NCBI GenBank assembly: GCA_027319565.1
Contig: DAHVNA010000016.1
Coordinates: forward strand, 1 to 40,232
Direction of reading: 5' to 3'
DNA from: Elusimicrobiota bacterium
Lineage (GTDB): Bacteria; Elusimicrobiota; Elusimicrobia; UBA1565; UBA9628
Length of the DNA stretch: 40,232 nucleotides
Every line of letters begins with the position of its first letter. Position 1 is the stretch's first letter. This document shows positions 3,243-7,721 of the stretch, piece after piece. A program made the position numbers and the translations under genes. The notes under the pieces are model-generated. The model searched no databases. It was not told where the DNA came from and saw nothing but the letters and a program-made list of their open reading frames with translations.

Positions 3243-3261
3243 GTCTGTTTCCGAAGTAAAA

Positions 3262-4581
3262 TCACTCGTCGCTGAAAATCCCTTTGGCGCGAGAAGCATA
3301 GAAGGCCTCAACTTCCTTCGGAAAAGGAAACACTCTGAGGCGAACAGATTCCTCTAAAGGTAGAAGGCAAGGGATGCGGATGCCGTGGTATTCCGTGGGC
3401 TCACCGATTTGGTGCATCGTGACCCCGCCACGCCGAAGCGCCAGCCACAAAGCCCGCTCGATGGCTGCACAAACGTATGGTACTCCATTTTTTTGAGATT
3501 CCTGGAAAATGGCCAAAATGAGCGCGAGGGAGATTTCGCTGTGGCCTGCGCGAGATAAATCTTTCGATGATGAACTTGCATCCTCGCCACCTAAATTCCG
3601 CGGAATGGCAAAGCGAGAAAACTCTCCTAATTTTTTCCTGTCAATTTGCTCCAATGTTTTCGTAATGTCGTATTCTTTCTCGATAGGGAAACCCTTTTCT
3701 GAGTTTAAAACCAGCCTCGCAGTTCCAACAGCGCGGCCTTGATTGTCGCGAACCAGTAAATGGACGGAAGAGTCGTCATAGATATCTCTCTCAAGCCCAT
3801 CAGGATAATCCGCCGAATTTAAGAACTCATGCTCAACGCAGTAAACTTGATAGCGAAGCCTGAAAATATCCTCTAAATCTTTAGAGTTCTTGGCGCATAA
3901 AACCTCAAAAGCGGGCTTTGGAGAAGCGGGTTTTTCAGAGACTATCGCGGGGACTGTATCTTTCTTGTCTCCTGCATCTCTAGGAACAGACGTTTTTGGC
4001 AATACTTTTTTTAATGCCGCGGCATCCGCCAAAACGATCACGGTGGCCGCGCAGGATTGACTGTCCGAGAAAAATTCCGCGTGAGTCAAGATAGCCTCGG
4101 CATTTTCCGGCATCCGTTTTGTCGCCATGGCGACAATTTCCTGTTTCGTTCCGCGCGAGAGTTTTGGCGCCAGTGAAATAAAAGCCTCTCCGCAATGATC
4201 CGCCAATGACCCCAAAATCCCATGTCCCAAAATATTGGCCACTTCGCTAAAAACCGGGCGATCCATATCCGAATTGCCGATCCTGGTTCCAGTGGCTGCG
4301 GCAATGCTTTTTTCCAGTGGAATCAAACTCCATTCCGGAAACAACATCACGACTTCAAAAAAAAGCGGCTGTGAAATGCCGACAAAAGCGCCCATATTTA
4401 TTCCGATATCCAGCTTGAAAAATTCCGGAATTTTTTCTCTAGCGACCGTTCTTATGCCGGAGAAAGAAACCTTCCATTTGCCTTGGCCGAACTTGGATAA
4501 TTTACGGCCGCTTAAAAGCGCACCGTCATGAAGGATCGTTCCTAACAATTCCAACTCTTTGGGACTCAACAATTCGCTCAC
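3262..4581 (-). CDS. Fusion of a CheC-like phosphatase domain (N-terminal ~195 aa) and an N-acyl amino acid synthase / exosortase-associated-type GNAT acyltransferase (C-terminal)
   Basis: The N-terminal part follows the CheC pattern, with SEVAN followed by P exactly 22 residues later (E-x2-N-x22-P). The C-terminal part has FRLRYQVYCVE, GLERDIYD, VGTARLV, EFSRFAI and IGEPTEYHGIRIP, typical of LuxI/FeeM/TIGR03694-like acyl-ACP acyltransferases. The GTG start overlaps the upstream stop (GTGA). Confidence 0.8.
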   Translation of the reverse strand: MSELLSPKELELLGTILHDGALLSGRKLSKFGQGKWKVSFSGIRTVAREKIPEFFKLDIGINMGAFVGISQPLFFEVVMLFPEWSLIPLEKSIAAATGTRIGNSDMDRPVFSEVANILGHGILGSLADHCGEAFISLAPKLSRGTKQEIVAMATKRMPENAEAILTHAEFFSDSQSCAATVIVLADAAALKKVLPKTSVPRDAGDKKDTVPAIVSEKPASPKPAFEVLCAKNSKDLEDIFRLRYQVYCVEHEFLNSADYPDGLERDIYDDSSVHLLVRDNQGRAVGTARLVLNSEKGFPIEKEYDITKTLEQIDRKKLGEFSRFAIPRNLGGEDASSSSKDLSRAGHSEISLALILAIFQESQKNGVPYVCAAIERALWLALRRGGVTMHQIGEPTEYHGIRIPCLLPLEESVRLRVFPFPKEVEAFYASRAKGIFSDE

Positions 4582-4970
4582 TTAAAAGCCCCCGCGCTAT
4601 TACTGGATGATTGAGCGAATATTTTTGCGACTGCCGCTTGAATGTCGGCCACGGCAAAGGGCTTGGCGAGAAACGCCGCTTTTAACTTCGTCACGATTGA
4701 GCGAGTTTCTTTTTGATCGTTGGCGCTAAGGACCAGGACCTTGGCCTCGGGATACGCCGCTCGCAACTGACGCAAGACGGTCAAGCCGTCCGTGTCCTCG
4801 AAACTGATGTCTAGAATTAAGAGATCCGGATTTAAGCGGCGATAGGTGGCCAAAACATTCTTCCCGTTTGTTTCAACGCCCGCAACCTCGTGTCCTAAAA
4901 CAGCCATCTGCGCGGAGACCAAATCATGAACAACCGGATTATCATCCGCGATCATTATTTTTTTGGACAT
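4578..4970 (-). CDS. Single-domain CheY-like response regulator
   Basis: KKIMIADD, PDLLILD (phosphoacceptor Asp), DG, VLVLSA and AKPF motifs; start placed at ATG 4970 just after the promoter. Confidence 0.9.
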   Translation of the reverse strand: MSKKIMIADDNPVVHDLVSAQMAVLGHEVAGVETNGKNVLATYRRLNPDLLILDISFEDTDGLTVLRQLRAAYPEAKVLVLSANDQKETRSIVTKLKAAFLAKPFAVADIQAAVAKIFAQSSSNSAGAFK

Positions 4971-4977
4971 ATCTATT

Positions 4978-5006
4978 ATTATGGTATTGTAATTGGAAAC
5001 TGTCAA
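4978..5006 (-). promoter_or_regulatory. Sigma70-type promoter of the response regulator operon
   Basis: TTGACA (5006-5001), 17 nt, CATAAT (4983-4978), then 7 nt to ATG 4970. Confidence 0.65.
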
Positions 5007-5035
5007 TATCACGCATCAAATAAACTAAATTTAAT

Positions 5036-5064
5036 TTGACAACTCATCGTGTTTATGCCAGCAT
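5036..5064 (+). promoter_or_regulatory. Sigma70-type promoter of the ACT-ThiF-nitroreductase operon
   Basis: TTGACA (5036-5041), 17 nt, CAGCAT (5059-5064) with an extended TG at 5056-5057. Confidence 0.5.
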
Positions 5065-5071
5065 AGGAATC

Positions 5072-5140
5072 AAGAGCGTTCGTTTGCGCTCTTTAAATAT
5101 CCACGGGTGAAGAGTCACTCTCTCCCAGTGGATATTTAAA
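5072..5140 (+). promoter_or_regulatory. Structured 5' leader with two hairpins
   Basis: AAGAGCG/CGCTCTT (5072-5093) and a perfect 13-bp stem TTTAAATATCCAC/GTGGATATTTAAA (5092-5104 and 5128-5140) with further inner pairing; lies just before the AAGGAG SD. Confidence 0.6.
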
Positions 5141-5160
5141 TAAAAAAAGGAGAAAATAAA

Positions 5161-5604
5161 ATGACACAGAATAATAGCGAGTTCGCAGGGTTTGTACCCG
5201 TCCTAACTGTCCCATTAAGCAATACCCCCGGAGCTCTTGAACCGGTGTTTAAGGTCTTCTCGCAAAACAATGCAGAATTCGCCATGCTCTCTGGCTTTTC
5301 TGCAGGGCCCATGGGTTTTATCGCGTTTGCGTTTAAAAACCCGCAAGACGCACAGAAAGTGCATAAGGGCCTGCTACAGGCGGGCATTTTCAGCAGAATC
5401 ACCGATGCCCTGCGGATCGACACCAAATCCTTCGCCCCAGGAGATCTATGGAATAAGGTGTTCCAGCCCTTTTTCTCAAAGGGGGTTAACGTCGAGTTCT
5501 GCTTTGGATTTGGGGACACGCAATTCTTCTTCACAAGCGACCAAAAGGCCGCGGCCGAAATTCTCAAGCCGTTCTTGTCTACAAAAGAATTCATCTCCGC
5601 CTAA
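5161..5604 (+). CDS. Tandem ACT-domain protein (amino-acid-binding, COG4747-like)
   Basis: Two ACT-like repeats: LTVPLSNTPGALEPVFKVFSQNN and LRIDTKSFAPGDLWNKVFQPFFSKGVNVEFCFGF; SD AAGGAG. Confidence 0.65.
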   Translation: MTQNNSEFAGFVPVLTVPLSNTPGALEPVFKVFSQNNAEFAMLSGFSAGPMGFIAFAFKNPQDAQKVHKGLLQAGIFSRITDALRIDTKSFAPGDLWNKVFQPFFSKGVNVEFCFGFGDTQFFFTSDQKAAAEILKPFLSTKEFISA

Positions 5605-5618
5605 TATATGCGAGCTCG

Positions 5619-5658
5619 GACCGCTCTGGGCGCCTTGTCAAGCGCGCCTGGAGCGGTC
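5619..5658 (+). other. Intergenic GC-rich stem-loop
   Basis: GACCGCTC...GAGCGGTC outer stem with inner GGGCGC/GCGCCT and CTT/AAG pairing; no U-tract. Confidence 0.55.
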
Positions 5659-5711
5659 TCCGTGGCTGGCGCTCCGCCATTAATGTTCAAAGATCATAAG
5701 GATGCATTATA

Positions 5712-6599
5712 ATGGAATTCAAAAATAAATTCGATTACGCAGACGCTTTTTCCCGCAATATTGGATGGGTGACAAAAGAGGAACAAGGAATTTTGCGCAA
5801 GAAAAGAGTGGCTATTGCCGGCATGGGGGGCGTCGGCGGAATTCATCTATTGACCTTGGCGCGTTTGGGCATCGGATCCTTTCACATCGCGGATTTTGAC
5901 GAATTTGAAATTCACAATTTCAATCGTCAAGTGGGGGCGACGATGTCAAGCGTCGGAAGGCCCAAGGCCGAGGTTTTAGCTGAAATGGCCAAAGACATCA
6001 ACCCCGAACTCAATATCAAGATATTCCCCGAGGGAGTCAAGCCTGAAAATCTCTCGGAATTTCTTAAAGACGCCGATCTCTATATTGACGGTCTTGATTT
6101 TTTCGCTTTTTTAGCCCGGGAAAAAACCTTCTCCGCTTGCGCGGAAAAGGGCGTTCCCGCCGTCACCGCGGCTCCTTTGGGAATGAGCGCGGCGACGCTT
6201 AATTTCTTGCCCGGAAAAATGACGTTTGAAGAGTATTTTTGTTGGGGTAATTTGCCGGAAGAAGAAAAGGCTTTGCGCTTCTTATTGGGCTTAGCTCCCG
6301 CTGGGCTCCATTTTAATTATTTAGTTGATCCAAGTTCCGTTAATTTTAAGGAGCGCAAAGGTCCTTCGACCGGAATGGCTTGCCAAATCTGCGCGGGCAT
6401 GGCCGCGACCCAGGCCCTGAAAATTTTGCTCAAGCGCGGTCCGGTTTTAGCCGCGCCCCATAGTATTCAATTTGACGCCTATCGAAACAAGCTTTCGCGC
6501 TGTTGGCGGCCCGGCGGGAACAATAACCCACTCCAACGTTTGGCTTTAATAATTGCTCGGCGCCGCCTGAAAAAAATAGACTCAAGGGAGTCAAAATAA
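5712..6599 (+). CDS. ThiF-family adenylyltransferase (similar to the OxzB ThiF domain)
   Basis: FSRNIG, VAIAGMGGVG nucleotide-binding loop, IADFDEFEIHNFNRQ, GRPKAEV and DGLD motifs; no MoeB Zn-binding CxxC pairs. Confidence 0.9.
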   Translation: MEFKNKFDYADAFSRNIGWVTKEEQGILRKKRVAIAGMGGVGGIHLLTLARLGIGSFHIADFDEFEIHNFNRQVGATMSSVGRPKAEVLAEMAKDINPELNIKIFPEGVKPENLSEFLKDADLYIDGLDFFAFLAREKTFSACAEKGVPAVTAAPLGMSAATLNFLPGKMTFEEYFCWGNLPEEEKALRFLLGLAPAGLHFNYLVDPSSVNFKERKGPSTGMACQICAGMAATQALKILLKRGPVLAAPHSIQFDAYRNKLSRCWRPGGNNNPLQRLALIIARRRLKKIDSRESK

Positions 6600-7642
6600 T
6601 AATCTCTCGAGAAATTATCTCAGAAATCGCCCGCTATGCCCAGATGGCTCCCTCGGGAGACAATCTCCAGGATTGGCGATTCTCTCTAAACGGAGAATCA
6701 CTTGAACTTCTTGCGGAATTCATGGATCACCACCCCTTTAATTTGAATCATCGTCCATCACTGACCTCCCATGGGACGGTCTTGGAAAATGCGCGCATCG
6801 CCTCCGAAGAATTCGGATTTGAGATGATTGAAGAGTTATTCCCCGGGGGGGACATCATCGCCCGCCTTCGATTTTCCAAATCTCCATCTAAAACCCATCA
6901 CCCGCTTTTTCCTTATCTTGAGACGCGCACGGTCAACCGCCGAAATTATTTGCCCAAAGAGCTTCCGCCTGAAATTCGAGAACAACTCATCCAAACCGCC
7001 CAAGATTCAGGTTTTGGACAGCTCTTTCTCGCGGACAAACTCCCCGCTAAAAAATGCGCGGCCAGGGCCGCCTTTTGCGGCTCTCAAATCATGATGGAAC
7101 ATCGCGGCGTCCACCAGAGCCTTTTTCAGAACATTCGCTGGAACCTTGCGGATGCGGAAAAAACCCGGGATGGACTCTATATTAAAACCTTGGAATTGGG
7201 TATTCAAGAGCCAGCCTTTAGGCTTTTGCGCTCTTGGCGGCTCACCTCTATTCTTAATTTCCTTGGCCTGAGCCTTTTCGCGGCTTTCCAGGATTATCAA
7301 TTGTCCATGGGCTCTTCCGCCCTGGGTCTCATTGAAGTCCCCGATGATTCGCCTGAGTCCATTCTCAATGGCGGGAAATTGTTTGAACGACTGTGGCTAA
7401 AAATGACCTCCTTGGGCCTTTCCCTTCAGCCCGAAAGCGCGCTAGTGTATTTTCTTCATTTATTTTGGAATCAACCCAATCACTTTACGCCGTCTCAGCG
7501 CCGGGTTCTTGAAAAAGGAGCGCAAGCTCTCAAAGAAGCGTTCCCTATAAAAAATGATAAGGGGATTCTGATGTTTTTTCGCCTGGGATATGCCTCAAAG
7601 GCGCCTTCCGCCAAAAGCCTCAGAAAACTCGTTCAACTCTAG
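6596..7642 (+). CDS. Nitroreductase-family FMN-dependent oxidoreductase; start uncertain (ATA 6596, or frameshift fusion to ThiF)
   Basis: APSGDNLQDWRF, RTVNRRNY, GKLFERLWLKMTSLGLSLQP and FRLGY motifs. The in-frame upstream helix ISREIISEIARYAQ precedes the ORF-track ATG at 6644. Confidence 0.85.
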   Translation: MIISREIISEIARYAQMAPSGDNLQDWRFSLNGESLELLAEFMDHHPFNLNHRPSLTSHGTVLENARIASEEFGFEMIEELFPGGDIIARLRFSKSPSKTHHPLFPYLETRTVNRRNYLPKELPPEIREQLIQTAQDSGFGQLFLADKLPAKKCAARAAFCGSQIMMEHRGVHQSLFQNIRWNLADAEKTRDGLYIKTLELGIQEPAFRLLRSWRLTSILNFLGLSLFAAFQDYQLSMGSSALGLIEVPDDSPESILNGGKLFERLWLKMTSLGLSLQPESALVYFLHLFWNQPNHFTPSQRRVLEKGAQALKEAFPIKNDKGILMFFRLGYASKAPSAKSLRKLVQL

Positions 7643-7721
7643 CCCCGCAAGGGAAAAACCGCTAGGTCCAAAGACCCTCCGGGGTCTAGGCCCTTTGGCC
7701 CTGTCGGCGGGGCAAAACCCG

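Follow-up and report, generated by a model that had tools for sequence, protein, structure and literature searches.

The locus lies in the window, i.e., the whole stretch of 40,232 nucleotides analysed from an uncultured Elusimicrobiota bacterium (genome G000), and forms a block of five genes (3261-7655). On the plus strand, positions 5712..6599 encode a 295-aa cyclase of the ThiF family (Pfam ThiF, 5.9e-46), which is of the stand-alone PRK08223 type (450.7 bits against this NCBIfam model, cut-off 266) and resembles TyzB and the N-terminal part of OxzB. It is followed on the same strand by an intact reading frame (6596..7642; 348 aa from 6596) for a two-domain oxidase of the nitroreductase fold, resembling TyzC and the C-terminal part of OxzB. 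The AlphaFold2 model of the oxidase has a mean pLDDT of 96.4, and its best fold match is the Acg homologue 2ymv (E 1.2e-12, TM 0.71); a sequence search for a solved structure found none. The oxidase keeps P19, S20, N23, R111, R115, R329 and other residues that are invariant in the family (71/71 aligned sequences). Identity to the closest relative, G003, is 94% for the cyclase and 80% for the oxidase, while the cyclase is 47-48% identical to those of G001, G004 and G013. Both proteins resemble the fused families PRK14851 and PRK07877, with scores far under the cut-offs of those families.

Divergently from thiF, the minus strand carries at 3262..4581 a fusion of a CheC-like domain with an N-acyltransferase resembling FeeM and OxzA (TIGR03694, 152 bits at a cut-off of 112; FeeM, 6.5e-10; CheC, 2.2e-4), which is found at the same place in G001, G003 and G004 and likely provides the first pathway step. 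The fusion gene directly follows a stand-alone receiver-domain gene (3262-5012, minus strand); acyl-amino-acid synthesis may be tied to a phosphorelay. The match to CheC is weak (E 2.2e-4). The fifth gene (5161..5604, plus strand) encodes a 147-aa protein of no family, without a match in Pfam or NCBIfam, that is 95% identical in G003, was not found in the G001 and G004 loci, and accompanies only the type of thiF present in G000 and G003. The thiF of these two genomes, which branches elsewhere in the tree and comes with the 147-aa gene, is 47% identical to that of G001 and G004, whereas the flanking genes reach 66-87%; it looks like an in-place replacement. The nearest relative of the window thiF outside the genus (55%; long branch) is a lone thiF without an adjoining oxidase gene on a 186-kb contig of the IMG/VR viral collection (L281). 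Taken together, thiF and the nitroreductase-fold gene appear to be two separate genes of an acyl-oxazolone-type pathway comprising an acyltransferase, an ATP-dependent cyclase and a flavin oxidase, with the chemistry predicted from sequence.

The junction between the two genes

Re-read from the sequence, thiF (5712-6599) closes with CTG AAA AAA ATA ... AAA TAA. The original prediction had placed the oxidase in the -1 frame of thiF, free of stops from at least 6569; the frame relation holds, and the stop-free stretch starts even further upstream, at 6527. It had also stated that this frame lacks ATG, GTG and TTG upstream of ATG 6644, which the sequence bears out; near-cognate codons in the frame are ACG 6536, ATA 6596, ATA 6599, ATC 6602 and later ATT and ATC codons. 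The sequence elements it had listed at the junction are likewise all present. In the reading frame of thiF, the A7 run (6570..6576, plus strand) falls as AAA AAA A; it is not conserved, G003 having GAG AAA ATA instead. A 5-bp hairpin (6579..6592), with a predicted stability of -4.9 kcal/mol alone and -6.4 kcal/mol with its flanks, is absent in G003; its loop and 3' arm hold the Shine-Dalgarno-like (SD) motif AAGGGAG (6584..6590), from the GGAG end of which it is 5 nt to ATA 6596 and 8 nt to ATA 6599. These two adjacent ATA codons (6596..6601) are candidate near-cognate starts, the first of which overlaps the thiF stop TAA (6597-6599) as ATAA in the -4 geometry of ATGA. The first in-frame ATG (6644..6646) encodes a conserved internal methionine without an SD motif and is the start in the public protein set (P0001, 332 aa). 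On the minus strand, the hairpin and the A run resemble a terminator-like site, 10 of which were found versus 4.6 expected.

The junction was checked on assembled contigs, which drop rare variants. For study P1, which may be the source, contigs of runs X1-X3 cover 5600-7700, and for study P2, record 18 of X5 covers 6476-6740 at depth 4, in both cases with 0 differences and 0 gaps; the identical junction is, thus, present in two studies, two years apart. Because of this exact match, with the A7 run ungapped in contigs from four runs, a sequencing error, which the original prediction had considered, is very unlikely.

The junction in relatives and in homologous loci

The thiF-oxidase pair occurs in four of 60 related genomes and is split in all four, three of which have an NTGA overlap at the pair. 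At the codons aligned to ATA ATA (6596/6599), these relatives have ATG ACG (G003), GAT ATG (G004), ATC GTG (G001) and GTG AAA (G013), and P0016, another close protein and the fifth case, has its start at the position of 6599. With canonical ATG or GTG codons at the aligned positions, the comparisons support the proposal of an SD motif preceding an ATA that overlaps the stop in the manner of ATGA coupling. ATG 6644 is present as an internal methionine in G001, G003 and G004, all of which start upstream of it. The closest relative, G003, has a short spacer between the genes, no A7 run, and its oxidase in the +1 frame; its junction differs from the present one by 11 nt in length, and those 11 nt contain the thiF stop of G003. 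Protein searches for the N-terminus of a closer strain yielded P0016 but none between this genome and G003. One partial thiF protein (P0004) has inner residues like those of G003 and a C-terminus exactly as in this genome; it may be a recombinant or stem from a chimeric contig, with the junction perhaps shared.

A metagenome scan with the single protein as query found no relative, and an alignment-based scan returned only distant relatives (29-42%). A wider set of 160 homologous loci (the best 80 of 307 metagenome matches and the best 80 of 209 genome matches) was collected with the oxidase alone as query, and about 90 of these loci are without thiF directly upstream. The set comprises 10 fusions, one of which (L158) was assigned by hand, and 150 non-fused genes, representing 130 distinct non-fused junctions among which kin are not independent. 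A canonical start lies 13-21 codons before the conserved proline in 141/150 non-fused loci versus 1/10 fused ones; ATA 6596 and ATA 6599 lie 18 and 17 codons before it. Among the other nine non-fused loci, six start slightly outside this range, one (L168) is frameshifted near the N-terminus, and the remaining two (L068 and L159) show an overlap of the type GTAA. The missing canonical start of the window oxidase exceeds chance expectation; its frameshift-like features do not.

The two GTAA cases (L068:1507-1510 and L159:2501-2504) are distant thiF-oxidase junctions at which a canonical start is absent from that place, in parallel to ATAA; among loci related to them, L032 shows TTGA, and in L059 and L062 an ATG lies close by. 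The oxidase gene of L168 is frameshifted at 2430-2504, and in one public assembly close to G004 the oxidase is in two pieces (P0015 and P0009); both cases reflect either error or decay.

All 10 fusions form one clade far from the window thiF (tree support 100/99); therefore, the pair did not arise by the recent splitting of a fused gene, an origin that had initially been entertained.

Initiation of the oxidase and its alternatives

Lacking a normal ATG start, the oxidase gene is probably translated at a low level, with a rare ATA as its start codon. We moderately favour the interpretation that the locus holds a split oxazolone-synthase pair like TyzB and TyzC, the oxidase of which would be started weakly at AUA behind a good SD motif. 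The motif at 6584-6590 is stronger than those of 85% of 365 ATG genes and stronger than that of G003, scored against an assumed anti-SD of the E. coli type, since the 3' end of the 16S rRNA was sought in the assembly and none is assembled. The spacing from GGAG to the start peaks at 5-8 nt in the genome, and both ATA codons fall within this range. A second candidate for initiation at AUA is infC (contig C28 of this genome, L195; further loci L276-L280), in which an ATG start is absent and GAGGG-AAT-ATA, together with the following codons, is invariant in 6/6 genomes of the genus; infC probably starts at AUA, with a GTG eight codons downstream as the alternative, and AUA initiation is, thus, probably available in the genus. 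It is not a general habit of the genome, given that the oxidase is the only ATG-to-ATA case among the 40 flagged of 712 ORF pairs shared with G003, a set that covers 988 kb or roughly half of that genome and includes some antisense shadow ORFs. A genome-wide screen for shared non-canonical starts, which flagged 50 cases, was dominated by antisense shadow ORFs and set aside.

As for the strength of such a start, AUA reached 0.1-3% of AUG in the E. coli reporters described in 10.1101/063800, and it matched AUG in competition in the one in vitro context reported in PMC5499595. For overlapping stop and start codons, PMC6728339 describes coupled translation in 13 of 14 tested pairs, with a contribution of the SD motif in E. 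coli. A narrow literature search for a bacterial AUA start codon combined with translational coupling found none, which does not show the case to be undescribed.

We infer the use of AUA in vivo, at one or the other codon, its coupling to thiF, the part played by the hairpin and the chemistry of the enzymes along the following lines. An 11-nt deletion in this lineage would have removed the old stop of thiF together with the spacer, leaving thiF to stop atop the oxidase start. The start codon or codons would have changed from ATG to ATA, a G-to-A exchange by which the overlapping TGA becomes TAA and is, thus, preserved as a stop. Ribosomes finishing thiF would open the small hairpin and expose the SD motif; after termination at TAA 6597, they would start anew at AUA 6596 or 6599, and the outcome would be a full-length oxidase of 347-348 aa at a lowered level.

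This reading has a speculative extension, which we regard as improbable: the start at AUA, together with the new hairpin that hides the SD motif, could be a selected dial. Oxidase output would then depend on thiF termination and, as at infC, on IF3 or translation stress, and the balance between acyl-amino acid and oxazolone would be set in this way. If so, start codons at thiF-oxidase overlaps should decay to NTAA repeatedly, as is hinted at by the GTAA of L068 and L159, and the induction of oxazolones by translation inhibitors reported in 10.1101/2020.06.11.147165 would fit.

The main rival to weak initiation at AUA is recent silencing, i.e., a start codon lost very recently, leaving the oxidase a young pseudogene in effect and the block on its way out. 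It was absent from the options of the original prediction, of which the SD-led ATA start is supported by the comparisons and error, gene split and recoding are not. In favour of the rival are the ATG-to-ATA change as a lone case, a sister genome without the block and variants in X5. The sister genome G005, which is 94% complete and no more distant than G003, is without the whole block 3261-7655: in its contig C10 (L282), the adenosine deaminase gene is joined directly to the SLT gene, and the genes for the acyltransferase fusion, the response regulator, the small protein, the cyclase and the oxidase are missing, so the pathway is dispensable. The block was likewise not found in G002 (71% complete). 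At least five X5 variants fall in the oxidase, three non-synonymous and two synonymous among those listed (depth 3-8); one of these low-depth variants alters the invariant Q278. In addition, the ATA is private to this species (two studies), and AUA can fall to 0.1% of AUG.

Against silencing, all 348 codons are intact and amino-acid changes are not in excess on the branch. The dN/dS of the oxidase versus G003 is 0.22 (0.09-0.22 for the neighbours); non-synonymous and synonymous changes number 25/28 on the branch of this genome and 32/28 on that of G003 (Fisher p 0.57), far under the neutral 3.4:1 (p 2e-6; 50 ambiguous sites excluded). Hence, the oxidase is under purifying selection, and no relaxation is seen on this branch in a test that is blind to a loss within the last 8-22% of it. 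Moreover, the junction was the same two years apart, the SD motif is stronger than that of G003, and up to three base changes separate the start regions of the two genomes, which suggests that the ATA state is not brand new. On balance, silencing appears unlikely, albeit by a degree that keeps it a serious contender.

A functional start at ATG 6644 would give a 332-aa protein lacking the first helix; in its favour, this codon is the sole canonical start and the public gene call. The helix (residues 5-15; 6608..6640, plus strand), which lies wholly upstream of 6644 and which the original prediction had expected ahead of APSGDN, is modelled with a pLDDT of 94-97 and under coding constraint, codons 2-16 showing five synonymous codon differences but two amino-acid differences relative to G003. 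A segment that is folded confidently and diverges mostly synonymously makes 6644 an unlikely functional start, and 149/150 non-fused homologous frames extend across it, the exception being L168, which is frameshifted there. Furthermore, ATG 6644 lies 45 nt past the thiF stop, corresponds to the internal methionine of the relatives and has no SD motif (4th percentile of SD strength). We, thus, give this start little credence, and the public 332-aa annotation should be corrected, as it lacks a helix kept by homologs.

Equally hard to sustain is the view that ribosomes slip by -1 at the A7 run, or that an A is added there, with an OxzB-like fusion as the main source of the oxidase. The -1 frame is indeed open from 6527, an A_AAA tetramer is present, and true fusions exist (PRK14851, OxzB, and the 10/160 loci above). 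However, the register is G_AAA_AAA rather than an X_XXZ_ZZN heptamer, the hairpin is weak with a spacer of 3 nt, and neither run nor frame is conserved, the oxidase of G003 lying in the +1 frame without an A7 run. The product would also be unusual, as its span from the conserved asparagine to the conserved proline would be 42 residues versus 52-55 in the 10 natural fusions (seven measured by script and three by eye), corresponding to a linker 10-13 residues shorter. According to PMC4066793, six tetramers are active in E. coli, of which A_AAA is the weakest, shifting at about 0.26% even with the IS3 pseudoknot and barely over background without it, and in the IS3 cassette the stimulatory structure lies 5 nt from the motif; transcriptional slippage is described in PMC1088944 as mostly exploited at 8-9 A.

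The features that point to frameshifting are also common. Runs of A7+/T7+ occur at 0.89 per kb in this genome, and a 25-nt downstream fold as good or better is found at 10.6% of its 1801 A7+ runs. Of the 292 ordinary NTGA overlaps examined in this genome, 185 have a -1 frame that stays free of stops for at least 9 codons and 73 for at least 23 codons, 12 have an A7 run within 40 nt, and 27 combine an A6+ run with a frame open to the start. The frame relation varies across the 54 distinct split junctions compared (-1 in 32, +1 in 14, 0 in eight); 18 of them combine an active tetramer with a stop-free -1 frame, at positions scattered within a Lys-rich helix. Programmed -1 frameshifting and phase variation, both raised at the outset, are not borne out, nor is an OxzB-like di-domain protein made by slippage or an extra A, the stop at 6597 being confirmed in four runs. 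The junction is not a new recoding signal; at trace level, frameshifting at the A7 run could still occur. Genuine heptamers (A_AAA_AAG or A_AAA_AAA) lie in the final thiF codons of three other split junctions (L058, L080 and L133), where the -1 frame is open but canonical starts are present as well; these junctions outrank the window as frameshift candidates, although the heptamers probably arose by chance.

Finally, the least credible explanation is an A8 fusion as the true gene, disguised by assembly error or phase variation: homopolymers are prone to sequencing error and rare variants are lost from contigs, but the ungapped A7 in all four runs, the split pair in relatives and the single distant clade of fused homologs speak against it.

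Comparison with known systems

The significance of the locus is modest. It offers a natural, datable change of an ATGA-type to an ATAA junction, with close relatives as controls, in which the tolerance of re-initiation for near-cognate starts can be tested. It further extends split oxazolone-type clusters, here with a CheC-acyltransferase fusion, to an uncultured mine drainage lineage.

In described oxazolone pathways, the ThiF and oxidase parts are either fused, as in OxzB (10.1101/2020.06.11.147165) and TrzS (PMC12856293), or adjacent, as in TyzB/TyzC (PMC10404671). The TyzA/TyzB/TyzC tyrazolone pathway, as presented in PMC10404671, is similar in having separate adjoining genes for a ThiF cyclase and a flavin oxidase of about 340 aa, an acyltransferase gene on the opposite strand and an Acg-like fold. 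In contrast to that pathway, the acyltransferase of the window belongs to the FeeM/TIGR03694 type and is joined with a CheC-like domain in one protein, genes for a response regulator and a small protein of no family intervene, and the oxidase is without a canonical start. OxzAB (10.1101/2020.06.11.147165) and TrzS/Rv1355c (PMC12856293) share the two domains in the same order, and the halves match PRK14851 and PRK07877; those proteins are described as single fused chains, whereas the pair is split here and both halves stay under the cut-offs of the fused families.

With the -1 signals of the IS3, IS1 and dnaX type treated in PMC4066793, the junction has in common an A-rich run followed by a hairpin and the A_AAA tetramer; it differs in that the heptamer is absent, the spacer short, the stem weak and the whole not conserved. 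Near-cognate starts (AUU of infC and pcnB; AUA) and termination-reinitiation at -4 overlaps provide the other parallel, combining a near-cognate codon, a good SD motif and the overlap of stop and start. While the infC start, as far as described, is conserved and regulatory, the ATA at the present junction is private to one species.
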